Origin: Klebsiella phage KMI7
Sequence record: MN101221.1
DNA length: 64,000 nt
Reading direction: 5' to 3' (one strand)
The notes beneath the pieces were generated by a model that made no database searches, was not told where the DNA came from, and was given only the letters and a program-made list of their open reading frames with translations. A program made the position numbers and the translations under genes. Of this stretch, positions 935-64,000 are shown one piece after another. Position 1 is the first letter of the stretch. Every line of letters begins with the position of its first letter.

Positions 935-1140
935 TGTTTCCGTTATACGCTAAAGTGCGTCGAAATGTCGGGAATTCATATCAAGAATGGAGTGAATGGC
1001 TACGTGAAACAAAGTCATTCTACATTTCAAAAGCAACTGATATGAAAGGCCGTAACATTCGCTATCGTAAACCCAGTGGTAAACGAGTGAATGGGATAGA
1101 TTACATTGTTCTTGATTCGATTCGGGATGATATAAAATGA
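931..1140 (+). CDS. hypothetical protein (69 aa)
   Basis: ORF, ATGA overlap coupling. Confidence 0.5.
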   Translation: MMFPLYAKVRRNVGNSYQEWSEWLRETKSFYISKATDMKGRNIRYRKPSGKRVNGIDYIVLDSIRDDIK

Positions 1141-1649: not shown

Positions 1650-1658
1650 GTATAAATT

Positions 1659-11156: not shown

Positions 11157-14100
11157 ATGGCTGATTTAGCAAAAATTCAATTCCTACGTAGCACAGTTGC
11201 GGGGAAAACACCTACTACAAGTCAGCTTGCAGATGGTGAACTGGCGATCAACATGGCTGATTATGCCATTTACACGAAAAATGGTTCTTCGATCGTTCAG
11301 TTAGCGGGTAAAGGTATCCCAGAAACAAATACCAAAAAATTAACAGTAGATGGGCCTAGTGCTCTTAATGATACCGTTACCGTAGCGGAAGGTAAAACTA
11401 TTACTTTCACCAACGCGGATTTGAGCGGGGGTATGGTTCGTCATATCACTGGTAAAAACGCGCTTAACGATGGTTGGTACATCGGTTCTGGTGGTGAGAG
11501 CAATAAAGGGTTTTTAGAAATCGGTACAATTGATGACGGTGATGAAGAGATCCGTTTCGTTTCCCGTGGTTCTGGTGATACTGTTCGCCGTACTTTGAAA
11601 CTTATTGATTCCGGTGGTAATACTCGCGTACCAGGTAACATCTATATTGATAAAGCTATGGGCGGTGGTGGTTCTGCCTTTATTTCAAAAAATAAAGCAT
11701 ATTTCGGTGCTGGCGGTGCTGATATCTATATGCGTAACACTGCTGGCGGTGCAACAAATCAGTTAACGATCACTGATGGCGGTGAATTGCTGTTTCAAGC
11801 AAAACCTGTATACTGGGACGGTCGTAAACCGACTTTAACAGAATTGGGGATCGGGCGGGTTGAAAACGCGCGTCAGCTTGAGCAAGATAATTTCCCTGTA
11901 ACTACAGGCAACGAAACTCGTTGGATCAAAGTTGCTCTTTTAAAAGATCCGGCTTCCGGTCAGAGTCGCTTGCAACTGATGGTGACTAACGGCGGTAACT
12001 ATGGTTCTACGCGTAGTTCTATCGACTTTATCGATTGTACTGCTCGAAGCATTCCAGCAACATTAACAAGCGCAAACATTCGTTCTTACCTGCAAATTCG
12101 TCGAATCGGGGATCCAGCAATTGATAATACTAACCAGATGCGTTATAGCCTGGTTCGTACCTCCGAAGGTTTAGAACTGTGGTTTACTCAACGCGCGTTT
12201 ATTGGTGGTGTTAAAGTTGCTCTGCTGTCTATTGCTGGCGGTGCTGCTACTGAATATTATCTGCCTACTGGTTACACAACTTCTGCAACTGCTCCGGAAG
12301 GGTTAGTTGAGAGTGTGGCTATTCGTATCTATGACGAAATGAACAAGCCTAACCTTGACGATGGTACTGATGGTATTCTGTCTGTTGCTAAAGGTGGTAC
12401 AGGCGCAAGTACAGCGGCTGCTGCTCGCACAAACTTAGGTTTGGGTACTGCTGCAACCCGTGATGTTGGTACAGGATCCGGACAAGTAATGCTTGTTGGT
12501 GCTTACGGTTTAGGCGGTAAGGGTACATCATATAGCATCGCAAATGCTCGCGACTTCCTGAAACAACTGCGTACTGATGGTTCTCAGTTCATGCGAAATA
12601 CGCTTGGTACTGACGTTAACTATGGTATGGGCGCAAGTTTTTATAGTTCCGTATCAGATGTTCATGCAGTGATCTCGGTCGATTGGAATACTGGTCGCGT
12701 TAAAGTTGGTGCAACTAATGATACTAACCTTAACTCAGATACAGGAAGAATCAACTTCCAGGAACTGTACGGTACTGCATTTAAACCGACTCCAGATGAC
12801 GTAGGGGCTGTTGCTCGTACTGGTGATACGATGTCTGGTGATCTGACGATCTCGAAAACATCGCCTGGGTTCCATTTGAATGCTGTTAGTGGAAACGCTG
12901 TAATTTGGTTTAAAAATAACGGGGTTGAAAGTGGTGCTGTATGGGCGTTGCCTAACACTTCCTCTTCTGGTGAAGTTCGTATTCGTGCTAAAACGACTGG
13001 TGGAACAACTGGCGGTGAATTCTCGTTTAAATCAGACGGTACATTTACATCACCGGGTAATATTAACATCACATATGGTGCATTTAACGGTCGAACTGTT
13101 AATACATCTTATGCAAACTTTAATAACGCAAGTTCAACCACAACTGAAAACACTGTTACTATTAGTGGTTCGCAGCACACTCCGCTGTTACTGAATAGAC
13201 CGACTAACTCGAACTTGTCTATCGGGTTTAAACTTTCCGGAATGAACATGAAACGTTTGGGTATTGATCTAAACGGTGATATTCGTTACGGTGAAGCAGA
13301 AAACCAGACACAAAACTCATGGCTGTTGACTTCGGATACGATAAACAGATGGATTGTTAACTTCGGTCGTGATATTAACGTTGCAGGTGTGGTTAATTCA
13401 ACTGGTGGATTTACTGGCCCTGTTACTGCATATGATTTGACTGGGGTAACTCAGGATCTTAATAATTTAACATTGAACTATACCGAACCCGGCCATATTA
13501 AAGTTTATTCGTGCCGTAGTATGGGTGGCGGTGATAACATCACCAATAAACCTTCTGGCGTAGGTGGTAACTTTATTGTTATCGTTGAATGTCTCCGTAA
13601 AGTAAACGATACCGATTACACTAACCGTCAAGTATTACGTGCATCGGACAATAAACGCAGTTGGGAACGTTGGTTAACTGTTAGCGGTACTGCTAAAACC
13701 TGGACACCGTGGAGAATGAACGTTGTTAGCGGAAACGATGATGATGTATCATTTAAATCTGTTACCACGACTACAGGAAACCTGAACAGTGGAAACGATC
13801 TGATTGTTGCTAACAACGCTCGCGTAGGCGGCAACTTAGGGTTAGGTGGTGCTTCTTCCACGACGTACACTGATAAAGGTGTTGTGATTGGTAACGGTAG
13901 TGCTCTGTTAGAAAGTACTGATGGTCGCGTGATTATTGGTAGTTCTGGTGCTGGTCGTGCTGTTGAATTTCGTCCTGGTGGCCCAACTCAAACCAACAAC
14001 GGGATCAAAGTAACTGCTACCTCTGGAAGTGGTGGTGATACTGCGATCGAGTATGCACAAGGGGTGAAAATTCGTTCTAATGCCGCTGGTGCGTTGATTG

Positions 14101-15341
14101 TTTCTGCTAAAGCAGGACAAGCAATTTATCTGCGACCGCAAGGTGATACATCCAGCACAAACGAAACCCGTATTGATTCAAACGGTAGTATCACGATTAA
14201 CGGCAATATTAACGCTAACGGTACACTAACTTGTACTGGTGGTGCTGTTAACGGCGAACTTACTGTTAATAACGTTGGCCCGCTCCTGAAAAAAGGTATC
14301 CGAACTTACGCTGATGGTTCAGTTACAGTTAACGAAACTGACGGCATTAAGATGTTTGGCAACGGTACTATATCTGGTACTATGAGATTAGTTGAACGTG
14401 TTAACGATACTACGTTTATTGGTCTTCAAACATCGCTTAATGCAGATACCAACGGTTGGTTTGAGTTTCACCATAATGGGATGCTTCGAGCAAACCATGC
14501 GGAACTGACAACAGGTCTTCGTGTTAAAGGTTCTCCGATTGTTCAGCCAACAAGTGACAACAACGCCTGGGCGTCTATTAACTTTAGGCATACGGACGGT
14601 ACTACAAATCGTGGTATTTTGTTTGCTGATGCTGCTGGTAATATCGGGTTTAGTAATATAAACGGTAAAAACGTTATATGGAACACTGGTAACTACTTTA
14701 TCATTCAGCAAGGCGAACTGAACGTTGGTGTTAACAACGGTGGTACTGGAGAAAACAACGAAGACAGGAACAAAGCTAACTTCTACAACAAAGGTTCTAT
14801 TGATTGCGCAGGTACACGCGCGTATCAGGATGCCAACGCAGGAAACCGCTGGGTTCGTGAAGTTCGTGGCGTAAGACATCTTATGCAAGGAACCGACCTC
14901 GGTTCTGAGAATATATTTGTTGAACGTGTAGGCGAACGTCATTTCCATATGCTTCATGTGTTTGGGGCTAACAGTAACGGTTGGTTTGAATTCCGTAATA
15001 ATGGTGATATGTCGTGTAACGGTACGTTGTATGCGCAGGATGTCTATATAACTTCCGATAAACGACACAAACGTAATATCACTAAAGTTGAAAGCTCCGA
15101 AGAAATTTTGAGCAAAATGTCAGCTTATAATTACGAAGTTCGAGATCCTACAGCAGATGATGCATGGACGAAAGCAACGGGGCTTATTGCTCAGGAAGTT
15201 CAGGAAGTTCTTCCTACTGCTGTTGATGATTCAGATCCTGAACATATTCGCTTGAACTATAACGCGATTGTTGCGGTTCTGGTAGAACAGGTCAACAAGT
15301 TAACTGCTAAAGTTAATGAACTTGAAAGAAAACTTAATTAA
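11157..15341 (+). CDS. 37: Long tail fiber distal subunit gp37 with C-terminal S74-type intramolecular chaperone domain (about 15054-15338)
   Basis: N-terminus MADLAKIQFLRST.. like T4 gp37; C-terminus SDKRHK...GLIAQEVQEVLPTAV...LNYNAIVAVL...coiled coil matches the Ser-Lys dyad autoproteolytic chaperone domain of endosialidases/T5 pb1. Confidence 0.9.
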   Translation: MADLAKIQFLRSTVAGKTPTTSQLADGELAINMADYAIYTKNGSSIVQLAGKGIPETNTKKLTVDGPSALNDTVTVAEGKTITFTNADLSGGMVRHITGKNALNDGWYIGSGGESNKGFLEIGTIDDGDEEIRFVSRGSGDTVRRTLKLIDSGGNTRVPGNIYIDKAMGGGGSAFISKNKAYFGAGGADIYMRNTAGGATNQLTITDGGELLFQAKPVYWDGRKPTLTELGIGRVENARQLEQDNFPVTTGNETRWIKVALLKDPASGQSRLQLMVTNGGNYGSTRSSIDFIDCTARSIPATLTSANIRSYLQIRRIGDPAIDNTNQMRYSLVRTSEGLELWFTQRAFIGGVKVALLSIAGGAATEYYLPTGYTTSATAPEGLVESVAIRIYDEMNKPNLDDGTDGILSVAKGGTGASTAAAARTNLGLGTAATRDVGTGSGQVMLVGAYGLGGKGTSYSIANARDFLKQLRTDGSQFMRNTLGTDVNYGMGASFYSSVSDVHAVISVDWNTGRVKVGATNDTNLNSDTGRINFQELYGTAFKPTPDDVGAVARTGDTMSGDLTISKTSPGFHLNAVSGNAVIWFKNNGVESGAVWALPNTSSSGEVRIRAKTTGGTTGGEFSFKSDGTFTSPGNINITYGAFNGRTVNTSYANFNNASSTTTENTVTISGSQHTPLLLNRPTNSNLSIGFKLSGMNMKRLGIDLNGDIRYGEAENQTQNSWLLTSDTINRWIVNFGRDINVAGVVNSTGGFTGPVTAYDLTGVTQDLNNLTLNYTEPGHIKVYSCRSMGGGDNITNKPSGVGGNFIVIVECLRKVNDTDYTNRQVLRASDNKRSWERWLTVSGTAKTWTPWRMNVVSGNDDDVSFKSVTTTTGNLNSGNDLIVANNARVGGNLGLGGASSTTYTDKGVVIGNGSALLESTDGRVIIGSSGAGRAVEFRPGGPTQTNNGIKVTATSGSGGDTAIEYAQGVKIRSNAAGALIVSAKAGQAIYLRPQGDTSSTNETRIDSNGSITINGNINANGTLTCTGGAVNGELTVNNVGPLLKKGIRTYADGSVTVNETDGIKMFGNGTISGTMRLVERVNDTTFIGLQTSLNADTNGWFEFHHNGMLRANHAELTTGLRVKGSPIVQPTSDNNAWASINFRHTDGTTNRGILFADAAGNIGFSNINGKNVIWNTGNYFIIQQGELNVGVNNGGTGENNEDRNKANFYNKGSIDCAGTRAYQDANAGNRWVREVRGVRHLMQGTDLGSENIFVERVGERHFHMLHVFGANSNGWFEFRNNGDMSCNGTLYAQDVYITSDKRHKRNITKVESSEEILSKMSAYNYEVRDPTADDAWTKATGLIAQEVQEVLPTAVDDSDPEHIRLNYNAIVAVLVEQVNKLTAKVNELERKLN

Positions 15342-15361
15342 GGGGCTTCGGCCCCTTTTCG
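15342..15361 (+). terminator. rho-independent terminator (GGGGC-UUCG-GCCCC + U4)
   Basis: Hairpin + T-run after gene 37 stop. Confidence 0.65.
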
Positions 15362-15372
15362 GAGGTTAACTA

Positions 15373-15900
15373 ATGGCTATTTCCGGCCCACTAGTTGGAA
15401 GTTCGGCGGTTAATGAAACTGGACAACGATCCATGATTCAAGCTGCTGCCGTCGTTCGACTTGGAACCCCATTTTATATGTCTCAATTAATTGGGCGTAG
15501 CAAATGGCATTTTACTTTTGTTCCCCAGGAACGTTGGTATAACAACACTCGTTGGCGTGGTGTTTGGCGTAAGGGTGCTGATACTGGCGTATGGTATAAT
15601 ATTTCTGACTCTGATTATACTATCGTTGGTGATTATAATGGTAAGCAAATAGGTACTATTGGCGCTATCGGTGATTCAGCAGAAAACGTGTCTAACTTAA
15701 CAATCTATGACGGGCCAAATCGAAATGTACGCATTTTGTTTACCCGTGTAGATAACAATCAACAATGGACGTTTGATTTCAGGATATCAAGTTATATGCG
15801 TGATGGATTCAGAAACTATGACGCGATGAGTAAAGATTGGTATGGTTTCCTTAATGGTAACGTAGGTGTGACCATTTCTGGGATCATTACTGAGATTTAA
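15373..15900 (+). CDS. hypothetical protein in the gene-38 position (175 aa, beta-rich, no recognisable gp38 chaperone or Gly-rich adhesin motifs)
   Basis: ORF with GGAGG RBS between 37 and t; no similarity recognised. Confidence 0.6.
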   Translation: MAISGPLVGSSAVNETGQRSMIQAAAVVRLGTPFYMSQLIGRSKWHFTFVPQERWYNNTRWRGVWRKGADTGVWYNISDSDYTIVGDYNGKQIGTIGAIGDSAENVSNLTIYDGPNRNVRILFTRVDNNQQWTFDFRISSYMRDGFRNYDAMSKDWYGFLNGNVGVTISGIITEI

Positions 15901-18060: not shown

Positions 18061-18074
18061 CATTTATTGCGAAA

Positions 18075-18494
18075 TTATAAGAAGAACCCAGTGCGAACAA
18101 TCAGATCGATTTTCTTTTCTGGTTCAAACGGTGATTTGCTATCGATGTTACACTGATAGAACATACCAACATACTTTTCAGGAATGTTGGATTCACGCGC
18201 CCATTTCAGGTTATCATCGGTATTCGGCCCCAGCATGAGGTTAACAACATCAACAGCATAATCCTGTTCTTTGGTGTTACCGGAACCGTTTACATAATGC
18301 CCGTGGGCGGTTTTGAGGATCTCAATTACTTCGCTATCGTCAGTTTCGACTTTGTAAAGCGTTGTATTTTCAGGAATTTCTTCAAGAATGATCAAAGCGG
18401 TTTTCATCACACTTACCTTTGTGTTTCTGTTTACGTTTTGCTTCTTTAAATGCTCGCTTGCGATCGCGGTGAGTAGAAGCGCGGTTGAAATCAT
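18075..18494 (-). CDS. hypothetical protein (139 aa; start uncertain, alternative Met 28 codons downstream)
   Basis: ORF. Confidence 0.45.
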   Translation of the reverse strand: MISTALLLTAIASEHLKKQNVNRNTKVSVMKTALIILEEIPENTTLYKVETDDSEVIEILKTAHGHYVNGSGNTKEQDYAVDVVNLMLGPNTDDNLKWARESNIPEKYVGMFYQCNIDSKSPFEPEKKIDLIVRTGFFL

Positions 18495-26968: not shown

Positions 26969-27173
26969 ATGCTCGTTTTATCTTTTCCAGAATGGAAATA
27001 AGTTCATCAACCTGCATTCTGGTCAGTGTTATTGTTTTTCCGTCCTGGATAATTTCTGTCATTTCTGATACGGATTCCGTATTAAATTTGACATCCAGTA
27101 AATCAGAATACGGTTCTGGTTGAAATCCTTCTGCAAAACCGTAATCATCGGGGATCCATTCATTAATTTTCAT
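26967..27173 (-). CDS. hypothetical protein (68 aa)
   Basis: ORF; ATG 27173 preferred over track GTG 27182. Confidence 0.45.
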   Translation of the reverse strand: MKINEWIPDDYGFAEGFQPEPYSDLLDVKFNTESVSEMTEIIQDGKTITLTRMQVDELISILEKIKRA

Positions 27174-27178
27174 GATAA

Positions 27179-27343
27179 TCACTTGTTATAAGGGAAACCA
27201 TCACGAACCATTTGCGGTTTGTCCACCGTTCGTTTTGCTTTGCCCCCGCAATAACACTCTTTCGGTTCGTCGCGGCTTGCGATGCTTGACATCTTCGGGA
27301 ATTCTTTTTCGCACTTGGTGCATTTATAGGTATAGGTAGGCAT
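27179..27343 (-). CDS. small zinc-ribbon protein (54 aa; CxxC...CxC, FmdB-like) not in ORF track
   Basis: MPTYTYKCTKCEKEFPKMSSIASRDEPKECYCGG...; TAATG coupling with upstream gene stop at 27343. Confidence 0.55.
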   Translation of the reverse strand: MPTYTYKCTKCEKEFPKMSSIASRDEPKECYCGGKAKRTVDKPQMVRDGFPYNK

Positions 27344-36323: not shown

Positions 36324-36821
36324 TCAACTGGTTAATTTCTTTTTCTTTTTACCTGCACGGGTAACACCTAATACTTTCGGCCCGATGTTGGTTACTGCTC
36401 CAGTAGTCACACCAGAAGCAATCTTTTCCGGATCGCCGCCAGAATCGCCAGCGACCATATCCTCTAACATACGCCCCTTATCATAATATTCTTTGAGGCG
36501 TGGAACGTTCAGCATGATTTCTTCATGCTCTTGTTCCGTCAGATTGTAGCGATTGCGTAAGGTATCATATGAACTGGTTAAGTTCATAAATCCAGTCATA
36601 TACGGAACAGAATTCATTCGACGCTTGATATGGCGTACTGAACGATGAAAAGGAGAATACGCTTCTAACTCTTCTTTTGTTTTGGGGTTGCGAATTACTT
36701 CGCCTTGTCCATCAAGGATCCCCAGCTTGTAAGCAGTCCATTCAGTCCAGGGCTTTTTGAGTAGCCGGATCATCCGGACGCTATATGTTAAATCCATATT
36801 TTTAACTAATTGATCACTCAT
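36324..36821 (-). CDS. hypothetical protein (165 aa)
   Basis: ORF. Confidence 0.5.
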   Translation of the reverse strand: MSDQLVKNMDLTYSVRMIRLLKKPWTEWTAYKLGILDGQGEVIRNPKTKEELEAYSPFHRSVRHIKRRMNSVPYMTGFMNLTSSYDTLRNRYNLTEQEHEEIMLNVPRLKEYYDKGRMLEDMVAGDSGGDPEKIASGVTTGAVTNIGPKVLGVTRAGKKKKKLTS

Positions 36822-38858: not shown

Positions 38859-39095
38859 TTACCTTACATTTTTTGCAATAAACAGTGTTAAACGCGGGAA
38901 TACGTTTGATAGAATGATCATTCTCAGTACAAAACCACCTACTAACACCAACAGCGGAGAACAAACCAACCACCAGGAAGCAGTAGCCATAACGCCGATT
39001 GCTGCTAATTTTAGGTATACCATCACACCAAACAAAATAATTAATATAAGTTTCATTTTAGATTCCATTGTAGGGGCTTTTTCGCCCCCAGTCAA
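38859..39095 (-). CDS. hypothetical membrane protein (78 aa)
   Basis: ORF with two TM helices. Confidence 0.5.
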   Translation of the reverse strand: MTGGEKAPTMESKMKLILIILFGVMVYLKLAAIGVMATASWWLVCSPLLVLVGGFVLRMIILSNVFPRLTLFIAKNVR

Positions 39096-54385: not shown

Positions 54386-56060
54386 AACATTGACTTATCA
54401 AAATATCTTGTCGGTTGGTAACGTACCGATCGTCATTGATTTTGATTCAGCAAAGAAAACCCTCATTACGGGTAAAAACGGCGGTGGTAAATCCACCATG
54501 ATCGAAGCGCTTACATATGCTCTCTTTGGTAAGTCATTTCGCGATCTGAAAGTCGGACAACTGGTGAACAGTATCAACAAGAAAAAATGTCTGGTTGAAC
54601 TGTTGATCGAATACGGTAATGATGAATATAAAATCATCCGTGGACAAAAGCCGAAAGTATTTGAGATCTGGAAGAATGGCGAAAAACTGCCGGAAGATTC
54701 AGCCGCTGGTGATTATCAGTCACAGCTTGAATCAATGTTGAATATTAATCTGGTGGGCTTTAAACAGGTTATCGTTCTGGGTACTGCTGGTTATGTACCT
54801 TTCATGGAACTGAAAACACCAGATCGCCGTAAACTGGTTGAAGATTTGTTGTCTTTGTCTATCATCAGTGAAATGGACAAACTGAACAAATCATACATCC
54901 GTGGTGTTAACCGCGAACTGGATACGCTTTCAATGCAGATTGGACACGTACAACAGCAGATCGCAACACATCAAAAGTTCATTGACGAACAACGGGCAAA
55001 AGCAAATCAGAATACGGCGCGTTACCAGGATATCTACGATTCCCACGTAGAAACAGCAAAACAGATTAAAGCGCAATTAGTTGAACTTCAAACCCAGATC
55101 GCAGAATGTGTGATCAATGGTGAAGACCAAACAGCAAATATTCAAAAACTGCGTGATGGCTATACACGCCTCTCAATGAACGTAGAACAGTTGCAGCGTC
55201 TTGAGGTGATGTATCGCAAGGGTGGTGAATGTCCGGCCTGTAAACAGCCAATTAGCCCCACTCCTGAACGCATGGAAGAGATTGCCGAGAATATTAAAAA
55301 CGGTACTCAGAAACTTACGCTGATTAAGAACAAGCAAGATCAGCTACAGAAAATCATGGATGATTTACTAACACAACAACGTACACTAAATGGGCTGAAA
55401 TCCAAATACGAATCACTACGCGGTACACTTCAAAACGAAGTTGCAGCGGCTAAACGTGTTCGGGCTGTCATGGATAAAGCACAGGAAGACGTGGTGATCG
55501 ACGAATCCCCAGTTGAAAAACTCCGTGAAGATGAAAAGGAACTTGATTCTAAACGTTCTGGATTTGTCAAGGAAAAATATTTCAGAGGTATTGTTACGGA
55601 TCTGCTGAAAGATTCCGGCGTTAAAGCGAGCATCGTTAAACGTTATATTCCTTACTTCAATAAACAGATTGCGTACTATCTGGATCTGTTGGGTGCTGAT
55701 TATCAGTTCACTCTGGATGATGAATTTAACGAATCGATTAAATCGCTGGGTCGTAATGATTTTAGTTACGCATCGTTCAGTCAAGGAGAAAGAGCACGTA
55801 TCAACCTTGCTTTACTTTTCACCTGGCGCGATGTAACCAGTAAAATTTCTGGTGTTGATTTATCCCTTCTGATCCTGGATGAAGTGTACGATGGTGCAAT
55901 TGATCGTGATGGTAGTTTTGCTGTAAAAGCACTATTGGATGGGATAAATGGTAACGTAATTGTTATCAGTCATCAGGATTTGGATCCGGAAGATTTCGAC
56001 CGACATATTGTTATGTCAAAAGTCGGTCGATTCTCTAAAATGGAAGTTAAGAAGTCTTAA
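54369..56060 (+). CDS. 46: Recombination endonuclease subunit gp46 (Rad50/SbcC-like ATPase)
   Basis: GKNGGGKSTMIEA Walker A, coiled-coil middle with CPxC zinc hook, C-terminal signature and D-loop; colinear with T4 gp46. Confidence 0.92.
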   Translation: MKLKFKTLTYQNILSVGNVPIVIDFDSAKKTLITGKNGGGKSTMIEALTYALFGKSFRDLKVGQLVNSINKKKCLVELLIEYGNDEYKIIRGQKPKVFEIWKNGEKLPEDSAAGDYQSQLESMLNINLVGFKQVIVLGTAGYVPFMELKTPDRRKLVEDLLSLSIISEMDKLNKSYIRGVNRELDTLSMQIGHVQQQIATHQKFIDEQRAKANQNTARYQDIYDSHVETAKQIKAQLVELQTQIAECVINGEDQTANIQKLRDGYTRLSMNVEQLQRLEVMYRKGGECPACKQPISPTPERMEEIAENIKNGTQKLTLIKNKQDQLQKIMDDLLTQQRTLNGLKSKYESLRGTLQNEVAAAKRVRAVMDKAQEDVVIDESPVEKLREDEKELDSKRSGFVKEKYFRGIVTDLLKDSGVKASIVKRYIPYFNKQIAYYLDLLGADYQFTLDDEFNESIKSLGRNDFSYASFSQGERARINLALLFTWRDVTSKISGVDLSLLILDEVYDGAIDRDGSFAVKALLDGINGNVIVISHQDLDPEDFDRHIVMSKVGRFSKMEVKKS

Positions 56061-56772
56061 ACTTGCAGTTATCAAAATGCCAGCGATTCATATTGCTGGC
56101 ATCACCAGATTTATTGCAATATGGACAAATCAACTGCTTCCTTTTTGCTGGCGTCTTTCTATTTGGGTTATTTCTGCAATACGGTATATGTGAACGCAGA
56201 TAATGTAATGACGATTCTGTTCCGCAATATGGACAATTGCCCCGTTCTTTAGGTACGTTTCCGTTCTTATGGGAACACGGGATACCCTCGAACTTATGTT
56301 TCAACCCTTCATTACCTGGTTTCAGTTTGCAGTTGTCGAAGTGCCAACGAGTCATATTTCCAATTATACCTGATTTTCCGCAATGAGGACACACAACCCT
56401 TTCTTGTTGCTTTTTGGCTTTACTCATTCGCTGTCTGGTTTCTTCGGTGAACTCTCTATTCCTATGTGCTTCTGACGCTTTTTTCTTTAACCATTCATAG
56501 CGGCGGTTAGCTGTTCTTTCCTTTGATCTATTGGAACCAACTGTTAACATATGCGCTGCAAAAACAAGTTTGTTATTTCCTGGGTACATCTTGACTAATA
56601 ACAGATGCGCAATATAATGTTGACGCGCTGTAAGATTAACCAAATTATCATCAGAATCTGTTCCACCTATGCACTTAGGTATGATATGGTGTGATTCTGT
56701 ATATCCATCATACTGCGTTTGTTTAGCATGTTCTATGATAGAGTTATAAATTTTGTTATAGTTCATAAACAT
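56047..56772 (-). mobile_element. Free-standing HNH homing endonuclease (Mob-like) with three C-terminal CPxCG...RWHFDNCK zinc-finger repeats
   Basis: HHIIPKCIGGTDSDDNLVNLTARQHYIAH HNH motif; 3' end overlaps gene 46 stop convergently by 14 nt. Confidence 0.8.
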
Positions 56773-56822: not shown

Positions 56823-57017
56823 ATGTTATTAGAAAAATCTTTTGAATTAGAAACCGCTCTGGAAATAGAGCGGTTTTATCTCCACAACAATTTTCTTGAA
56901 GAAAAACATATAGTTACTATGAAAGATGTTGAGGAAGCATTCAAAAATAATCCTATAGAGTTGACGCGAATCAAGAACAACAAAAGTTCTGTTTGGTTCC
57001 TCGAAAAAATCTATTGA
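56823..57017 (+). CDS. hypothetical protein (64 aa)
   Basis: ORF with AAGAGGA RBS; terminator hairpin follows. Confidence 0.5.
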   Translation: MLLEKSFELETALEIERFYLHNNFLEEKHIVTMKDVEEAFKNNPIELTRIKNNKSSVWFLEKIY

Positions 57018-57042
57018 CCGAAATCCATAAATACAGTAAAGT

Positions 57043-57075
57043 AGCCCATGTAACGAAACGTGGGCTTTGTTTTTA
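57043..57075 (+). terminator. rho-independent terminator (AGCCCAUG...CGUGGGCU + U-rich)
   Basis: Hairpin followed by TTGTTTTTATTT. Confidence 0.6.
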
Positions 57076-57090
57076 TTTGAGGAACAATAA

Positions 57091-57327
57091 ATGATCACCG
57101 AATCCAAAATGACTTATCAGGAAGCACTGAAAGTTTTGGGCGCAACTGGTAGCGAAACCAGCGCCGAAATGTCCAGACTCTTCAAACGTGCATCCTTACG
57201 CAATCACCCCGACCGTGGTGGTAGCAATGAATTAATGCAGAAAATTAACCAGGCTTACGACGTCGTTACAAAAACTGGGCCTAGTGGCGCACGTTCTGAG
57301 ACTGCTGGTGACGTTCGCGCACGTTAG
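57091..57327 (+). CDS. J-domain (DnaJ-like) protein, 78 aa
   Basis: YQEALKVLG...LFKRASLRNHPDRGGSNELMQKINQAYDVV with invariant HPD tripeptide; GAGGA RBS. Confidence 0.8.
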   Translation: MITESKMTYQEALKVLGATGSETSAEMSRLFKRASLRNHPDRGGSNELMQKINQAYDVVTKTGPSGARSETAGDVRAR

Positions 57328-57775
57328 CGGAAACGATATCTTTGTTGAAGTTGGTACACTGAAAGTTCGTTTCTATCGTCACGTGTTCATGCGCAAAGGT
57401 GCTTATGTGTTTAGCGCGGTGTATGATCCTGCTGTATCTAAGTATCGTCCGGCTGCACAACTTCGCGGAACCATGTTCGAAGACGAAGACGGCGCTTGCC
57501 TGGATATGATCGTTGATACGTTCAAAGAGTTGCAGAAACTGAAACCGAGTGTTCAAGGCGTTGTGAACGCGATCGATAAGATGAACGCAGAGTTTGCAGC
57601 GGGACATCGTTCAGCATCTTTTGTTAAACGTGTAGCTGCTCAGGAAGCCGCGCCGAAGCCAGAAGAGAAGCCAAAACGCACTGTTAATCGTATCGGTAAA
57701 GAGGCACTGGAAGAACGATATTCCAACATCACGGGGATCTTTTCCCCGTCCTTGACGTTGTTAATGATATCCTGA
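57284..57775 (+). CDS. hypothetical protein in +1 frame overlapping J-domain gene (start uncertain; possibly expressed by frameshift or from internal ATG 57389)
   Basis: Protein-like ORF (…FEDEDGACLDMIVDTFKELQKLKPSVQGVVNAIDKMNAEF…) with no RBS at its GTG/ATG candidates. Confidence 0.45.
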   Translation: MAHVLRLLVTFAHVSGNDIFVEVGTLKVRFYRHVFMRKGAYVFSAVYDPAVSKYRPAAQLRGTMFEDEDGACLDMIVDTFKELQKLKPSVQGVVNAIDKMNAEFAAGHRSASFVKRVAAQEAAPKPEEKPKRTVNRIGKEALEERYSNITGIFSPSLTLLMIS

Positions 57776-57915
57776 TCGATGAGTTCAATCAGGTCTCTTT
57801 TCTCCTTGATCAAGGTAGAAATTTCTTCTTGCAGCGGGGCTATCTGTGCATGAAGTTCTTTGATCCGTTGATCAATTACGGTCACTTCGAACGCTAAGTT
57901 TCTCATTGTACCCAT
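57640..57915 (-). CDS. hypothetical coiled-coil protein (91 aa; 3' 136 nt overlaps convergent ORF 57284..57775)
   Basis: ORF. Confidence 0.4.
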   Translation of the reverse strand: MGTMRNLAFEVTVIDQRIKELHAQIAPLQEEISTLIKEKRDLIELIDQDIINNVKDGEKIPVMLEYRSSSASLPIRLTVRFGFSSGFGAAS

Positions 57916-58109
57916 TCCCCGTTTTTATCAATGTACATGATCCAATCAGCAACCGCCCAATGGGAAGTATTGCCTTTCGGAGTAGCTACGATGTAGGAAC
58001 CAGCTTTAAACAGTACGCGTTTAGTTTCGTTCAGGGTCAGGTCGCTCATAATGTATTCCTCATTTAACCAAAGTGAATCGTGATTCATAAGCATCGTTCG
58101 GGCGCTCAT
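57903..58109 (-). CDS. hypothetical protein (68 aa)
   Basis: ORF. Confidence 0.4.
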   Translation of the reverse strand: MSARTMLMNHDSLWLNEEYIMSDLTLNETKRVLFKAGSYIVATPKGNTSHWAVADWIMYIDKNGEWVQ

Positions 58110-58455
58110 ACACGGTATCCGAACTTGTAATGACAGTGTACACGGTTTCTTTCACAAGATCCATGATTTTCTGTGATTCTCCCCAGACATTGATACTAAA
58201 ATAAATCCCATTTTTAGGAATAGGATTGTATTCCATATCATAATACATATCCATGAGTTCACAAATGAACAGGCGGCGCTGTTCGTTATCATATGTGAAA
58301 TAAATGTTAAAACAATCGAGAGATTTACTCAAAGTAATCTCTTTGATAACGATGTTGTCTTGTTTGCTAAAATGATCGCGGATTGCTTGCACACAACGCA
58401 ACAGGTTAGGGTAATCATATTTTTGTGAAACAATGACTTGATGTGAAACGCTCAT
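58060..58455 (-). CDS. hypothetical protein (131 aa)
   Basis: ORF downstream of cassette copy 4 with GAGAGGA RBS. Confidence 0.5.
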   Translation of the reverse strand: MSVSHQVIVSQKYDYPNLLRCVQAIRDHFSKQDNIVIKEITLSKSLDCFNIYFTYDNEQRRLFICELMDMYYDMEYNPIPKNGIYFSINVWGESQKIMDLVKETVYTVITSSDTVYERPNDAYESRFTLVK

Positions 58456-58522
58456 AATGTATTCCTCTCAATTAGATACACTCATAATAAAAAAGCCCCC
58501 GACCGAAGTCAAGGGCTTTTTG
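58456..58522 (-). promoter_or_regulatory. Hairpin/early-promoter cassette copy 4 (-35 TTGACT in stem, -10 TATTAT)
   Basis: aaagcccTTGACTtcggtcgggggcttttttTATTATgagtgtatctaattGAGAGGAatacatt ATG on minus strand. Confidence 0.7.
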
Positions 58523-59164
58523 TCAAATGATTTGTTTTTCTTCTAACAGCTTCGCGGTTGTATTAACCATACGAGCATAATCACGGGCTTCTTTCTTTGT
58601 ATACTTGAAACCAGCGTTATAGCTCGCAAGCGCCTTTTTCAAGTCGCCTTTGTGGTAATCAAGCCAGTACTCCAGTTCATAGATCGCATACTTCGATCCA
58701 CCTTGAAGAGTTTCGAGCTTTTTGATTACTACGCGTTTAGGATATGACTTATCCATTCGTGCGCTGGCGCTCCTTGCGGTAACTTGCCAGCATCCATAAG
58801 CGTGATGGCCTTTTTTACCTTTACCGACATTCTCACATGCGCGAGACTCAATCCAGGCAATAGCCGCTAAATGATAGCCTAAACGTTTAGCCTTATCTTT
58901 TTCTACAGGTTTTGCAGTCTTCAAATCATAGTTGTGTCCAACTCGATAAGCATACTCCAAAACCTCTTTCTGCTTCGGTGTGATATTATCCAAATCCTTG
59001 ATGTAGGATGGAGAATTTTTGTTTGCCGGAGGCTTTACAGTAGCCTTTTGTAAAGGCAATTGATGAGTAGGCAAATCCGCAATGAAATCCCCTAGCGGAT
59101 CCGTCGCAGCGTTGCCAGAAAAAGAGCACAAGAAAATGCTGGCAGCAATAATAATTTTCTTCAT
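58523..59164 (-). CDS. Secreted lytic transglycosylase (SLT domain) with signal peptide
   Basis: MKKIIIAASIFLCSFSGNAA signal peptide; AIAWIESRACE (catalytic Glu-Ser), GCWQV, SYNAG SLT motifs. Confidence 0.7.
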   Translation of the reverse strand: MKKIIIAASIFLCSFSGNAATDPLGDFIADLPTHQLPLQKATVKPPANKNSPSYIKDLDNITPKQKEVLEYAYRVGHNYDLKTAKPVEKDKAKRLGYHLAAIAWIESRACENVGKGKKGHHAYGCWQVTARSASARMDKSYPKRVVIKKLETLQGGSKYAIYELEYWLDYHKGDLKKALASYNAGFKYTKKEARDYARMVNTTAKLLEEKQII

Positions 59165-59228
59165 TTTAATACCTATGTTGCAAAAAGAGGGGCAATAATA
59201 CACCCCACTTTATATTTATGCAACTATT

Positions 59229-59783
59229 TTAGATAGTTTTCGCGTCACGTAGTTTATCGTTGATAAACTCAGCAATGTTATAATTTGAAATAGCCTTGTT
59301 AGGATCGTATAGTGCAACAATTTCATCTAATGATACCATAACGGCATGTTTAAAATAGACACTCCAGCTAGTAGTAAAGATTTCTCTGTTGTCAAATCCA
59401 CAATCAGGGCTGAACAATGCGCGGTATTTGTACCCACTGTATTTCGTCAGACGATTCGTGCTGTGTGCATCACTGGTGATCAGAAATTTTCCCTGGTGAG
59501 TTTGAATGACGAAAAAGTATCCGAGGCGTTCTTTGTTGTCCAGCATCTTTTCAAACTTGCGATCGGTTTCTTCGCGAAAAATACGAGAAGTCAGCATTTC
59601 CAACACTTTATCGTATTCGGGCCAATCATTCTCGATCACGATCGCATCAAATGGTTTCTTACCATTAATCCCGCGCCCGATTTCGATTTTCGTGCAAATT
59701 TCGTTGAACGTTTTCAAATCTTCTGGCGTCAGTTCTTTAAGATCGCTCAATTTTGCTACATAATAACGTTTTTCTAGTTTCAT
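59229..59783 (-). CDS. hypothetical protein (184 aa)
   Basis: ORF. Confidence 0.5.
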   Translation of the reverse strand: MKLEKRYYVAKLSDLKELTPEDLKTFNEICTKIEIGRGINGKKPFDAIVIENDWPEYDKVLEMLTSRIFREETDRKFEKMLDNKERLGYFFVIQTHQGKFLITSDAHSTNRLTKYSGYKYRALFSPDCGFDNREIFTTSWSVYFKHAVMVSLDEIVALYDPNKAISNYNIAEFINDKLRDAKTI

Positions 59784-59794
59784 TTATAGAAACC

Positions 59795-59998
59795 TCAATT
59801 CAAAAATAATTTCACAGAGTTACCACATTTGGGACATGTGATAAATTTTTTCACGACATAATCAGCAGCAGAGAAAAATCCATTGTAAATCGATTCTCTC
59901 TTTTGCTGTATATCAGATAGTTCATATTCTAACCCACTTTTACAGCAACTGCAAACAGTAATTAGTTTTGGGCTATGGATAACAGTAATCATATACAC
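59795..59998 (-). CDS. small zinc-ribbon protein (67 aa; CSCC...CPKCG)
   Basis: ORF with two Cys pairs. Confidence 0.45.
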   Translation of the reverse strand: MYMITVIHSPKLITVCSCCKSGLEYELSDIQQKRESIYNGFFSAADYVVKKFITCPKCGNSVKLFLN

Positions 59999-60002
59999 CT
60001 CA

Positions 60003-60024
60003 CAAAAAGGGGGCTTTCGCCCCC
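60003..60024 (-). terminator. rho-independent terminator (GGGGGC-GAAA-GCCCCC + U5)
   Basis: Hairpin + T-run on minus strand after PIN-PhoH gene. Confidence 0.65.
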
Positions 60025-60028
60025 ATCA

Positions 60029-61372
60029 TTAGAAATTGTCTTCGACAAACGCCGCGAGACGGGAACGATACACTGTATCAAGAATGATATGGCTTGAGTG
60101 TTCGTATTCTTTCAGCTTTTCAACAGCCCATACAAACCCGTTGTTAACGGCAGTGTTTCGAGGGTTGTCGATCTGCTTAATGTTCCCGCATAGTATCAGA
60201 AGTGTGTTCTCTCCGCAACGAGAAATGATAGATTTAATTTCGTGGTTGCTAAGGTTTTGACATTCATCAACAATCAGCACAGAACCTTTGCCCGGATCCG
60301 GATGTCCGATACTGCGACCACGGAAGTAATACAGGCTAGGGAATTGCACCACCCCTTTTTCAATCAAACCTTCAATGTATTTTTCAGATTCCGGATTATC
60401 CTTAAACAGAATATTCAGGCTAGTAATACAAGGTTCGATAGAAGGCCGGAGTTTTTCGCCCAATGTACCAGGAAGGAAGCCGATTTCACTTGATAACGGG
60501 CTATCTGACTTCACATACATCAAGTTAGCGTAATGTCCACTATTAACCAGGTGCATAGCACCGGAAACAGCAAGCATTGTTTTACCAGAACCAGCGCCGC
60601 CCATAATGGTAGCAACATCGATTTCATTGCTCATAATGGATTCGACAAAAGCCGCTTGCAGAGAATCACGGGGCTGAATAGCTTTCATGAGTTTGCGTTT
60701 CATAGCCTGTTCGTGCTTAACAGGTAAGACATTCAAGCAAATCTCATCAGCAGTCACCACACGCCCGACTAACTCACCATTTGAGGTAATGTACTGGTTA
60801 GGATAAAAATCTTCGTCAGGAAGCGAACTGTAAGTGATTTGGGCTACATTATCTGTATATCCCAACACTTCTACGGTATCCCAGAAATCAGGGATCTCTA
60901 CATAACCGGAATACAATACATCGCTATCTTTTAACGTATCGTCGCCAGTATACTGTTCTACCTTACACCCACGGGACATTGCGATCAGCAACATCATAAT
61001 ATCGCGAGTAACTAAGGTTGCATCCTGTTGCATACAAGTTTCAATGATTCGTTCGTCTTGCTTGTCAAGAGCAAACGTTTTGTTTCCGACATAATCAACC
61101 ACTTTAAGGGTGATAGTGTCAGACAGTGCTGGGTTTGTCAGGTTTAAAGGAATACCTGATTTCGTAATCGCATCATATGACTGACCGAAAATAACTTTTG
61201 ACAGAAGCCGGATCGCCAATCGTGCTTCGTGCGCTGTTCGTTCTTTCGTTTTCAGGTGATCTAATTCACCCATAGTAGCAGAGGTAATAATGATTTCTGT
61301 ACCAGGTTGAGTGAATGAATAGATTGAATAGGGGTTCGAGACTAAAACGTTAGTGTCTAAAACATATTTCAT
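60029..61372 (-). CDS. PIN-domain + PhoH-like ATPase (YlaK family)
   Basis: N-terminal MKYVLDTNVL PIN motif; GGAGSGKTMLA Walker A and PhoH core. Confidence 0.8.
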   Translation of the reverse strand: MKYVLDTNVLVSNPYSIYSFTQPGTEIIITSATMGELDHLKTKERTAHEARLAIRLLSKVIFGQSYDAITKSGIPLNLTNPALSDTITLKVVDYVGNKTFALDKQDERIIETCMQQDATLVTRDIMMLLIAMSRGCKVEQYTGDDTLKDSDVLYSGYVEIPDFWDTVEVLGYTDNVAQITYSSLPDEDFYPNQYITSNGELVGRVVTADEICLNVLPVKHEQAMKRKLMKAIQPRDSLQAAFVESIMSNEIDVATIMGGAGSGKTMLAVSGAMHLVNSGHYANLMYVKSDSPLSSEIGFLPGTLGEKLRPSIEPCITSLNILFKDNPESEKYIEGLIEKGVVQFPSLYYFRGRSIGHPDPGKGSVLIVDECQNLSNHEIKSIISRCGENTLLILCGNIKQIDNPRNTAVNNGFVWAVEKLKEYEHSSHIILDTVYRSRLAAFVEDNF

Positions 61373-61427
61373 AGAAAATTCCTGATTTGATTACGGGGTA
61401 CGCGGATTCGCACCCCGCGTACTGCAA

Positions 61428-61886
61428 TCACATACCCAGCGAAATTACGTGAATATATGCTAATGGGTGTCTCTTTTGTACACAATGCATGATTGTATTA
61501 TATACAATGTCCATGCGTTCATTGTGTGTGAGATCACACTCATCAAAAATAAGGTTTATTGCCTGGTGCTCTATTCGACGTCCACGGAAATGATTAAGAA
61601 TCGCCCCTTTACTGGTCAATACATCACATCCGGTAGCACCGTGTAGCCGTTTGGCTTCTTGTGCTGCATTTAACGTATGCGCTACGTAAATGTTAAGGGA
61701 ACTATGGGAACGTTTCATAAAATCAAACGCACCTTTAGTCTTTTGTGTTCTTCTACCCAGATCCAACCTGGTTTCAAATACCATAAAATCGTTAGGGCCG
61801 TAATTATGCGTTGGTTCTTCCAACTCTCGCATAAGATGCATCTTACGACATTCTTCAATTGTCTTTACATAAAATTCACTATTCAT
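61428..61886 (-). CDS. hypothetical protein (152 aa); weak resemblance of N-terminus (HLMRELEEP) to pyrimidine-dimer glycosylase DenV motif
   Basis: ORF; similarity tentative. Confidence 0.45.
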   Translation of the reverse strand: MNSEFYVKTIEECRKMHLMRELEEPTHNYGPNDFMVFETRLDLGRRTQKTKGAFDFMKRSHSSLNIYVAHTLNAAQEAKRLHGATGCDVLTSKGAILNHFRGRRIEHQAINLIFDECDLTHNERMDIVYNTIMHCVQKRHPLAYIHVISLGM

Positions 61887-61917
61887 GTTTTACCTTTAAG
61901 GGGCCAAAGCCCCTTTG

Positions 61918-62313
61918 TTACGCTAATTCCACATGCGGGGCATCAATGAATTTTGTTTCGATCGGAAGGTTCGGATCATTTTTCCAGTTGATACCAAAAC
62001 GCAGTTTAACACCCAGTTCATCACCTGCTTGTTTAACAGCATTCAGGACAGGCAACCACACTTTAGGGTTTGTTTGCCAGCCTTGAGGCAATACGCTAGG
62101 ATACAGATCCACAGCATCACCAGTGATGTGTTTTGAGTTCATTGTTTGAGATACACCCTTACGGACGTTCTCGCGCTGTTGTTCAACAGTACGCAGACCT
62201 TCACGTACACCAAAATCAACAGGAGACAGTTGCAGAGCACGTTCTACAACTTTCACCAGTTGAGGTTTAACACCTTTAAGGTTGTTAAGGCTTTTTTGAC
62301 TGAATTTAAACAT
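61918..62313 (-). CDS. Peptidase M15 family (L-alanyl-D-glutamate/DD-peptidase fold) putative endolysin
   Basis: SKHITGDAVDL (SxHxxGxAxD) and C-terminal DAPHVEL zinc-ligand motifs. Confidence 0.7.
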   Translation of the reverse strand: MFKFSQKSLNNLKGVKPQLVKVVERALQLSPVDFGVREGLRTVEQQRENVRKGVSQTMNSKHITGDAVDLYPSVLPQGWQTNPKVWLPVLNAVKQAGDELGVKLRFGINWKNDPNLPIETKFIDAPHVELA

Positions 62314-62380
62314 AAATCACCTCTTGTAAAAATACCCTGTTTGGGTACACAGGGTATTTATGGTTTAAGAGGTTCGATAA

Positions 62381-62782
62381 TTAATAATCGTAAAGATCAC
62401 CGAAGCATAATTCAAATTCACGTTTACGTTTCATCTGTTCTTCTTTTCTCTCTTTCATATCAGAAGGGAGACGATCTTCATTGACTTCATCAATGTACGC
62501 TTGTGCATCCTCTTTTGTTAGAAAGAATGCATGGAAGTTATATCTGTTACGCCCATTCATACTACGGTCGTCAAGAGAGAATTGAGTGTGACAGTCCCAG
62601 TCATCAAACAGGGTGATGCATTTTGCAAACAGCCCTATACCGCGATTCATATAAGGGAAGCCAGTAACAATCATCTTGTTACCCATTTCCGCTTTTTCAC
62701 CGTCCACGCAGAATACTTCATACATGATCGCACCTGGTTTAACATCTTTCTTAACAGCACGTTTTTCAAAAGCACTTTTCAT
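62381..62782 (-). CDS. hypothetical protein (133 aa)
   Basis: ORF. Confidence 0.5.
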   Translation of the reverse strand: MKSAFEKRAVKKDVKPGAIMYEVFCVDGEKAEMGNKMIVTGFPYMNRGIGLFAKCITLFDDWDCHTQFSLDDRSMNGRNRYNFHAFFLTKEDAQAYIDEVNEDRLPSDMKERKEEQMKRKREFELCFGDLYDY

Positions 62783-62836
62783 AATATATTCCTCTCAATT
62801 GGTGTAACTACAGGTTACTTGTTTATTTTCTGGATG

Positions 62837-63160
62837 TCAACAAGGTTTATCGTTTTTTGACGGAAAAGTTAGAGTGAACAAACGATCGTGAAGGTTGTCT
62901 ATCCGTTCACAAGCCTGTTTCAGTATGGTTTTATCACCATCATTTGTTGTTTCAATGCATCCAAGTTCATCGGCGTCAATGTTCACTACATCGCTCATCA
63001 ATGAAGCAAACACGTTAGCATCAGGATGTAACAGTTCTTCGATTTCGGCCTTCATGCCGTCGTGTTCAGAAAGGATATCAATAATATCGCGGGTTAAGTC
63101 TCCCTGGTACGGGAACCCCGTTTCTAAATGATTAATGATCCTTTGTGCTTTCGTAATCAT
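62837..63160 (-). CDS. hypothetical acidic protein (107 aa)
   Basis: ORF. Confidence 0.5.
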   Translation of the reverse strand: MITKAQRIINHLETGFPYQGDLTRDIIDILSEHDGMKAEIEELLHPDANVFASLMSDVVNIDADELGCIETTNDGDKTILKQACERIDNLHDRLFTLTFPSKNDKPC

Positions 63161-63170
63161 AATTTTACCT

Positions 63171-63193
63171 ACAAAAAAGCCCCTTTCGGGGCT
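63171..63193 (-). terminator. rho-independent terminator (AGCCCC-GAAA-GGGGCT + U6)
   Basis: Hairpin + T-run on minus strand after 63200..63463. Confidence 0.65.
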
Positions 63194-63199
63194 AGTTAA

Positions 63200-63463
63200 T
63201 TAAAGTTCACAGCAACGGCACACACCGTATTTTGTAAATGGAGCATCACCGCTAACATAGGCCCAGAAATCACATGCTTCTTCGGCAGTATCGAAGATTG
63301 CAGCATCATAGAACCCGTGGGCTTCGTTACCGTTCTCATCGATGAAAACCGGAGTCCAGATATTAGGATTGAAGCAATCGTCAACAACAACCCAACCTTC
63401 TTTAGCTTTCATTGCTTCTTTGTTGGCTTCGATGTGAGCTAAGATTTCGTTCATGATGTCCAT
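63200..63463 (-). CDS. hypothetical protein (87 aa)
   Basis: ORF preceded by promoter/leader element. Confidence 0.5.
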   Translation of the reverse strand: MDIMNEILAHIEANKEAMKAKEGWVVVDDCFNPNIWTPVFIDENGNEAHGFYDAAIFDTAEEACDFWAYVSGDAPFTKYGVCRCCEL

Positions 63464-63529
63464 TTTTCTCTCCTAAAGTGCGTTTCGTTTCGACAGGGCT
63501 ATAGTCTCATAACCCCGTATCTACGTCAA
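63464..63529 (-). promoter_or_regulatory. Early promoter + conserved leader (TTGACG-17/18-ACTATA-..TCGAAACGAAACgCACTTTAGGAG)
   Basis: ttgacgtagatacggggttatgagactatagccctgTCGAAACGAAACgcaCTTTAGGAGagaaaa ATG on minus strand. Confidence 0.6.
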
Positions 63530-63532
63530 CAC

Positions 63533-63793
63533 TTATTTGAAGCGAATTGTGCTATTTTTGAAAAATAATCCAGAGCACACAGCACCTTCAATTTTCACCC
63601 CTGTAGGACTTTTAGCAACGAACCCTGTTGCATAGGTGTCTTTCTCATCACATGCAAACCAGGCGTGGCCTGTGTACGTGATATCGGTAAACCCGTTAGC
63701 AGTCAGAATACGTTCGGCTTCTTTCTCATCGGTGCATCCGGCTTGTGCTAAAACGACAATGACGACTAACACCAAAGCAATAATATATTTCAT
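63533..63793 (-). CDS. Putative lipoprotein (86 aa; lipobox LAQAGC)
   Basis: Signal peptide MKYIIALVLVVIVVLAQAG|C. Confidence 0.6.
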   Translation of the reverse strand: MKYIIALVLVVIVVLAQAGCTDEKEAERILTANGFTDITYTGHAWFACDEKDTYATGFVAKSPTGVKIEGAVCSGLFFKNSTIRFK

Positions 63794-63794
63794 G

Positions 63795-63998
63795 TTAAAC
63801 TCTTTTTAAGTTGGTTTTACTGGCTTCAATCCAGTACACGGGATCAGAATAGTTACCGCACATACCCAGTAACACAGTTGTACATCCTAAATGATCGGAA
63901 GGTCTCAATCCATCAGGATGAAAAGGCAATTCGTTAACACCGATACTGGTAGCAAAAAGAGCACCTCCAGTACTGTAAAATGTTTTGATATGATCGTA
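63795..63998 (-). CDS. hypothetical protein, C-terminal 67 aa (5' end outside window)
   Basis: Open frame ...GGALFATSIGVNELPFHPDG...KTNLKRV* ending at TAA 63795-63797. Confidence 0.4.
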   Translation of the reverse strand, partial: YDHIKTFYSTGGALFATSIGVNELPFHPDGLRPSDHLGCTTVLLGMCGNYSDPVYWIEASKTNLKRV

Positions 63999-64000
63999 TG

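Follow-up and report, generated by a model that had tools for sequence, protein, structure and literature searches.

The split J-domain reading frame of Klebsiella phage KMI7 is very probably a known Rki-type co-chaperone gene broken at two breakpoints

The gene family to which the locus described here belongs has been known since 2012, when Rki (ORF057w, 237 aa) of phage RB43 was characterized (Perrody 2012, PMC3486835). The N-terminal ~77 residues of Rki form a functional J-domain; grafted onto DnaJ, this 77-aa segment works with DnaK, and the exchange H38Q abolishes activity (PMC3486835). Rki binds DnaK and stabilises sigma-32, and its toxicity needs the C-terminal domain together with the J-domain, Rki(1-159) being non-toxic (PMC3486835). 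An RB43 Δrki phage is viable and grows poorly on some hosts (PMC3486835). In phages RB16 (Rki16) and KP15 (gp055), rki and ORF058w form an in-frame fusion, resulting in proteins of 565-569 aa, and for RB16 the fusion has been shown by Western blot (PMC3486835). The RB43 record contains ORF057w and ORF058w in one frame, split by a single TAA at codon 238, and thus represents a natural precedent for the split and fused states of this gene.

The DNA analyzed here, referred to as the window, is a stretch of 64,000 nucleotides from Klebsiella phage KMI7 (MN101221.1). Megablast against a phage collection identified it as DNA of Slopekvirus, the Klebsiella T4-like phages that include KP15, Matisse, phT4A, KM2 and others, with ~98-99% identity, and the whole KM2 genome (PV833077.1) was used as reference for comparison. 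KM2 and KM3 each carry the J-domain ORF as one gene of 1710 nt encoding 569 aa, flanked by gp45.2 on one side and by three small ORFs ahead of frd, td and nrdA on the other. Members of this 569-aa family, which corresponds to phrog_7739 (function unknown), start with a J-domain, which is followed by the Rki C-terminal domain and a pair of ORF058w-type modules. An uninterrupted 569-aa ORF was present in all 22 close relatives, namely KM2, KM3, ten contigs obtained via the gp46 of the window and ten obtained via its homing endonuclease (exact matches; NCBI, ENA, Logan, JGI), and the gene order was identical in 20 out of 20 fetched contigs. The single-frame version that the first-pass annotation of the window had suggested looking for in related phages therefore exists as one 569-aa ORF. 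The same annotation had considered a J-domain gene uncommon in T4-like phages, which does not hold for the clade of the window: tblastn with the 569-aa protein matched 204 phage records, 177 of them with one place covering at least 80% of the protein. The gene is conserved in Slopekvirus (KP15, Matisse) and in RB43/RB16, occurs at ~70% in Enterobacter, Cronobacter and Citrobacter phages, and is partially matched in Aeromonas phages.

The window resembles the loci of KP15 gp055 (UniProt D5JF99) and RB16 Rki16 in the position of the J-domain ORF after gp46, a homing endonuclease and gp45.2, which are all kept. The ORF itself (57091..57327, plus strand) comprises 78 aa followed by TAG and represents codons 1-78 of the 569-aa Rki-058w fusion gene. 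It is preceded by a Shine-Dalgarno sequence on the same strand, GAGGA at 57077..57081, which was read from the sequence and lies 9 nt 5′ of the ATG at 57091, in agreement with the good ribosome binding site reported earlier. Between gp45.2 and the J-domain gene (57014..57066), a consensus scan only indicated two further plus-strand elements, a promoter-like site (TTGACC-17-TAAAGT, 57014-57042) and a terminator-like hairpin with a T-run (57043-57066), the latter at a place equivalent to that where phage KLB10 annotates a terminator.

The initial assignment of a J-domain with its HPD motif was borne out by several comparisons. The HPD tripeptide forms residues 39-41 of the 78-aa product (NHPDRGG) and aligns with the HPD of Tim14 and DNAJA1. 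Residues 14-60 matched Pfam DnaJ (PF00226) with an E-value of 2.6e-5, its 24.7 bits falling a little short of the gathering score (27.8), and phmmer against the PDB retrieved 16 J-domains, with Tim14 as the best match (5e-8), E. coli DnaJ at 9e-4, and Hsp40 and large T antigen also among them. Within the phage family, the product was identical in all 78 residues to the KM2/KP15-type protein (KM2 XYO05601.1), showed 74% identity to the J-domain of RB43 Rki, in which the HPD is likewise conserved, and matched positions 1-74 of phrog_7739 (E 2e-38). Judged by these matches, the 78-aa product is a genuine J-domain; stimulation of the DnaK ATPase may be expected from its homology to Rki. The 78-aa sequence is on record once by exact-protein look-up, in a 2144-nt ENA contig that ends at that very codon and has 18 mismatches to the window. 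We considered this contig as a second occurrence of the truncation and rejected it, as it derives from a different strain and merely stops there, reflecting a selection effect of the exact look-up.

Downstream of the J-domain, the coding information continues in another frame. The +1 frame is open from 57236, after a TAA at 57233-57235, to a TGA at 57773-57775 (57091 mod 3 = 1; 57284 mod 3 = 2). Its earliest possible start is GTG at 57284, resulting in an overlap of 44 nt with the J-domain ORF, and its earliest ATG is at 57389; no Shine-Dalgarno sequence was found before the candidate starts of this frame, including these two. All coordinates that the first-pass annotation gave for this ORF (open from 57236 to 57775, 44-nt overlap, no credible ribosome binding site, first ATG at 57389) were reproduced by script. 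The region 57284..57775 is composed of three parts, (a) 43 nt from the J-domain coding region in the wrong frame, (b) the genuine codons 244-369 of the 569-aa gene, and (c) the last 71 nt, an antisense read-through of unrelated DNA.

The middle part belongs to a retained internal gene fragment (57327..57704, plus strand) containing part of codon 243, codons 244-369 and base 1 of codon 370, which represents the first of the two modules, homologous and each ~135 aa long, that the 058w half contains, and matches positions 237-367 of phrog_7739 (E 2e-81). Compared with KM2 residues 244-369, 124 of 126 residues were identical, the substitutions being M264F and L294F; at the DNA level there were 9 nt differences, six of them synonymous and three altering codons 264 and 294. 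Both phenylalanines are found in PhiK2046, whose sequence has its full length except for a 1-nt indel, and F294 also in RB43. By these comparisons the retained fragment is free of pseudogene decay, which implies that the lesion is either very recent or artificial. The final part, 57705..57775 on the plus strand (ALEERYSNITGIFSPSLTLLMIS*), is antisense to a truncated minus-strand gene and consists of DNA corresponding to KM2 126218 onward; it has no homology to the J-protein family, and the alignment with the KM2 protein stops at ...NRIGKE.

The change of frame could be traced to a junction located between 57326 and 57327, hereafter junction 1, by blastn against KM2 and base-by-base comparison. 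At this point 494 nt are missing (KM2 80487-80980), which comprise codons 79-242 and thereby the Rki C-terminal domain. The window reads ...GTTCGCGCACGTTA|GCGGAAACGATATC..., whereas KM2 runs on from the left side as ...GCGCACGTTATGCACGTCAA... and reads ...GGCGCTGACATTAGCGGAAACG... on the right side. The exact microhomology at the junction is restricted to TTA, which is surrounded by an imperfect 9-of-12 match between CGCGCACGTTA and GCGCTGACATTA. Since 494 = 3×164+2, this deletion both turns CGT TAT (R78 Y79) into CGT TAG, creating the stop after codon 78, and moves the remainder into the +1 frame; codon 244 onward now begins at 57326 (mod 3 = 2) compared to a start codon with mod 3 = 1. Exactly 494 nt separate the two window segments in 22 out of 22 close relatives. 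That the relatives instead gained these 494 nt by insertion or as a mobile element was discarded as explanation, since the segment encodes the conserved Rki C-terminal domain and RB43 has this domain too.

In its superficial geometry alone, the locus is similar to programmed +1 frameshifting of the prfB/RF2 type, with a short ORF running to a stop and a longer ORF in the +1 frame, and a frameshift within 57284-57327 that fuses the J-domain to the downstream ORF had been proposed on the basis of the 44-nt overlap, the downstream frame lacking a start signal and a 9-mer repeated in the overlap. The 9-mer is indeed duplicated: GCGCACGTT is present at 57287-57295 and 57317-57325 on the plus strand and nowhere else across the 64 kb. 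However, the two copies are ordinary codons for GARS and VRAR, and the same pair with the same spacing of 30 nt occurs in intact, single-frame orthologues (KM2 80447 and 80477; 21 of the 22 close relatives), though it is absent from RB43. We consequently rejected a role of the pair as recoding signal, the same pair occurring in unshifted intact genes. It was likewise dismissed as direct repeat of the deletion, as both copies lie upstream of junction 1 and also occur in intact genes. Inspection of 57284-57327, which ends ...CGC GCA CGT TAG C, revealed no slippery or stimulatory +1 motif, and in particular neither a CUU-UGA-type site nor a correctly spaced internal Shine-Dalgarno sequence. Moreover, the two-frame arrangement was found in none of the 22 close relatives and in no other record seen, and the downstream frame does not encode a complete conserved extension but 126 homologous residues followed by 23 antisense read-through residues. 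In contrast to the prfB/RF2 type, the window thus combines no slippery site, stimulator or conservation with a downstream frame that is not a complete protein. As the frame offset is fully accounted for by the arithmetic of the 494-nt deletion, programmed frameshifting was rejected and is almost certainly not the explanation.

A second alternative would be two separately expressed genes as in RB43, where rki and ORF058w are separate in-frame ORFs split by TAA: the J-domain ORF and a protein starting from the ATG at 57389. The annotated start of ORF058w corresponds to the methionine at window position 57389, and PhiK2046 is annotated likewise. In RB43, however, both parts are complete, share the same frame, and Rki keeps the C-terminal domain that is deleted in the window. 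The ATG at 57389 lacks a Shine-Dalgarno sequence, and the product would contain one of the two modules plus 23 nonsense residues, with a rearrangement junction as its 3′ end, and exact look-up retrieved no record of such a protein. We therefore regard two independent genes as highly improbable.

That 3′ end, junction 2, is located at 57704/57705, 378 nt from junction 1. Here KM2 81358 (base 1 of codon 370) is followed directly by KM2 126218 without a change of orientation, with 44.86 kb missing, and the junction sequence ...CGGTAAAGAGG|CACTGGAAGAACG... (...AAAGAGG|CACTGG...) shows essentially no microhomology. After codon 369, the sequence continues with DNA found 44.9 kb away in all relatives, inside a minus-strand gene that is truncated as well. 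Of this gene, a hypothetical one with 196 aa in KM2 (ECPAIMMK_00203; KM2 125835..126425), the 5′ ~67 codons are left in the window at 57705..57906 on the minus strand, with the ATG at 57906; from there on, the frame crosses the J-gene fragment in antisense to a stop at 57640. Compared to the KP15 gp055 and RB16 loci, the window hence lacks codons 79-242 and 370-569, the two kept pieces are in different frames, and the downstream neighbours (three small ORFs, frd, td, nrdA and so on) are swapped at junction 2 for DNA from 44.9 kb away. Neither the Rki C-terminal domain (~residues 79-237), which is expected after the J-domain in this family, nor a single frame leading through two ORF058w modules to the C-terminus (...LWRLTY) was found in the window, module 2 and the C-terminus being absent. 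The locus is a remnant of the Rki / Rki-058w fusion family and not an intact member.

The ends of the deletion lie near domain boundaries, one at the end of the J-domain, one lying a single codon beyond where rki stops in RB43, and one exactly where the two 058w modules meet. This placement follows the domains slightly more closely than would be expected of random breakage.

Taken as a whole, the window falls into three collinear blocks with 96-99% identity to KM2, window 1-57326 (KM2 24237-80486), 57327-57704 (KM2 80981-81358) and 57705-64000 (KM2 126218-133000). Within the first block, departures from collinearity were whole-gene indels and divergent tail-fibre segments. Such differences are usual in this group of phages. 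When every open frame of KM2 with 90 aa or more was screened against the window, only two annotated genes proved to be truncated, both at the junctions, and three small or divergent annotated genes were absent. The sequence is otherwise clean, with no further real gene truncated across the 64 kb, and a generally noisy assembly was ruled out on the same grounds.

According to the KM2 annotation, the missing block carries frd, td, nrdAB, denA, rnlA, the spanins, pnk, cd, gp31, DNA ligase, tk and others, as well as the baseplate hub genes gp27/28/29/48/54/51/26/25, and includes essential genes. The contiguous molecule would consequently be unable to sustain itself as a T4-like phage, unless the genome carries the block at another site beyond the window. 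As the window covers only 64 kb, such a site for the 44.9-kb block is conceivable, and the phage could then be viable.

Based on the comparisons described above, we conclude with high confidence that the locus is the known 569-aa co-chaperone gene, broken by a 494-nt deletion and a second breakpoint, with no recoding involved. An indel, which the first-pass annotation had offered as alternative to frameshifting, was right in kind; it is not a small one, but one of two breakpoints 378 nt apart, the second of which removes 44.9 kb. Both breakpoints seem to go back to one complex event, presumably a ~45.7-kb deletion (KM2 80487-126217) with a 378-nt patch copied from nearby, which could have arisen by template switching in vivo or from chimeric library molecules.

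Both junctions appear to be unique to the window. No phage record in the megablast collection covers the junction region, exact 25-26-mers across either junction were not found in IMG/VR, GTDB genomes or JGI metagenomes, and exact-protein look-ups retrieved no protein on record for the 163-aa, 128-aa and 91-aa junction ORFs. The breakpoints may stem from the phage genome or from library preparation, assembly or concatenation, and we lean towards a non-viable molecule or an artefact because the missing block holds essential genes. The chances are about evenly balanced that the junctions are artefacts (chimeric reads, mis-assembly, or end-to-end joining of contigs or fragments) and that no such molecule exists in the phage population. 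A joined molecule without gp31, ligase and baseplate hub would give no viable T4-like phage, neither junction recurs in more than 110 near-identical genomes or in three contig collections, the breakpoints are as close as 378 nt with junction 2 devoid of microhomology, and the retained fragment is undecayed. On the other hand, the rest of the window is clean and contains no frameshifted genes, and De Bruijn assemblers need junction-carrying reads to join sequences that share only 0-3 nt.

It is also quite possible, at somewhat less than even chances, that the junctions are real and arose in vivo by illegitimate recombination or template switching, either in a defective genome propagated by a helper or in a viable phage with the block moved outside the window. 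The gene is dispensable and, in natural phages, liable to deletion, as is evident from Klebsiella phage vB_KM5a1_KLB10 (PP505786.1) and PhiK2046. RB43 Δrki is viable on suitable hosts (PMC3486835). KLB10 carries a natural deletion in the same Slopekvirus gene (KM2 80099-81287) with short homology at its ends; unlike in the window, this deletion is in frame, the N-terminus of gp45.2 is fused to residues ~347-569 with loss of the whole J-domain, and the remainder of the genome is intact (174,281 bp; deposited as complete genome). PhiK2046 has a 1-nt insertion in a T-run at codon 216. At junction 1, the TTA microhomology and the imperfect match between CGCGCACGTTA and GCGCTGACATTA fit slippage. 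Nevertheless, the contiguous sequence lacks essential genes, no relative has a relocated block, the gene order being the same in all 20 fetched contigs, and junction 2 destroys a second gene as well.

If the molecule exists and the locus is expressed, the sole product with a start signal would be the 78-aa J-domain-only peptide, made from normal early signals. By analogy to the grafts of the Rki J-domain, such a peptide could still touch or stimulate DnaK, and it would lack the C-terminal domain needed for the biological effect and specificity of Rki. A viable phage with the block moved would be an rki-null mutant making this peptide. It is very unlikely that the junctions are real, that the 44.9-kb block lies elsewhere in a viable rearranged Slopekvirus and that a free 78-aa J-domain is naturally expressed; if this were true, the peptide would represent a minimal J-domain-only modulator of host DnaK and the locus a natural dissection of Rki almost exactly at its domain boundaries.

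Annotation of the region as a 78-aa DnaJ-like protein followed by a 163-aa hypothetical protein would be wrong, because the window contains a gene-destroying double breakpoint and lacks ~45 kb. The main value of the finding is that of a quality flag concerning the integrity of the sequence at 57.3-57.7 kb, where ~45 kb found in every relative are missing. The underlying J-domain gene family is an established one and the lesion is ordinary; if real, it adds merely one null allele of a dispensable gene.

At junction 2 (window 57704/57705), 44.86 kb are absent in comparison to every Slopekvirus relative, corresponding to positions 81359-126217 of the reference relative KM2 (PV833077.1). This block carries gp31, DNA ligase, the nrdAB/td/frd cluster, the baseplate hub genes and tk. 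Unless the 44.86-kb block has been relocated, no viable phage genome can contain the window, as written, as one contiguous stretch. A 91-aa ORF on the minus strand (window 57640-57915) spans the junction and is chimeric. Its real part, approximately 67 codons, represents the N-terminus of a 196-aa hypothetical gene (KM2 125835..126425) with its true start at window 57906, and beyond these codons the frame runs through the antisense of the J-gene fragment (window 57327-57704). An inverted repeat, ACGGGGATCTTTTCCCCGT (57732-57750), was also observed within the coding sequence of the 196-aa hypothetical gene.

The intact gene for the 569-aa J-protein, a fusion of Rki and ORF058w, is located at 1812-3521 of the relative's sequence L001 (KM2 80251-81960). 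Within the protein, the ORF058w-like half consists of a ~135-aa module duplicated in tandem; the two modules (residues 232-369 versus 370-500) share 33% identity across 132 aa (E 5e-15). The boundary between them is the exact site of junction 2. The right end of junction 1 (window 57326/57327) lies one codon beyond the position of the rki stop codon in the related phage RB43. In ENA, a 2144-nt metagenome contig (ERZ1303452 NODE_11939) that belongs to a different strain (18 mismatches) ends at the exact equivalent of window 57326, the final base ahead of junction 1; the exact-protein look-up, through a selection effect, is the most probable cause of this match in end-point.

Further differences between the window and KM2 comprise the presence or absence of whole genes, with small ORFs gained or lost at window 1134-1656, 18073-18077, 26969-27181, 36327-36335, 38874-39073 and 61369-61427, as well as tail-fibre segments that diverge (12469-12807 and 14266-15895). 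The difference at 61.4 kb is common to phages R4_1 and KP5 and thus reflects ordinary strain variation. Upstream of the J-protein gene, a MobE-like homing endonuclease gene (window 56047-56772, minus strand) separates gp46 from gp45.2; it runs opposite to them and overlaps the gp46 stop by 14 nt. This gene is present in the Slopekvirus relatives as in the window, whereas the RB43 locus is devoid of it and gp45.2 directly follows gp46.

Two GenBank records deposited as separate phages, PP273508.1 (vB_KpnM_W8-3, 74,353 bp) and PP273509.1 (W8-4, 100,477 bp), both match the J-gene region of the window at ~99%. Together they add up to the length of a single Slopekvirus genome (174,830 bp), but because of their overlap at the J-gene locus they do not simply represent one genome cut into two non-overlapping halves.

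Altered sequences of the J-protein gene were found in two further phages. In PhiK2046 (PP736830.1, 301-2011 of the fetched sequence), the T-run at codon 216 carries a 1-nt insertion, so that the gene is split and annotated as two CDS (229 and 305 aa), the second of which starts at the Met equivalent to window 57389 and to the start of RB43 ORF058w. The insertion could represent a real split allele or a sequencing error. Phage KLB10 (PP505786.1, 2857-3630 of the fetched sequence) carries a natural in-frame deletion spanning KM2 80099-81287, with ~15 nt of homology, by which the first ~38 residues of gp45.2 are joined to J-protein residues ~347-569. The J-domain is thereby lost in a Slopekvirus whose genome was deposited as complete.
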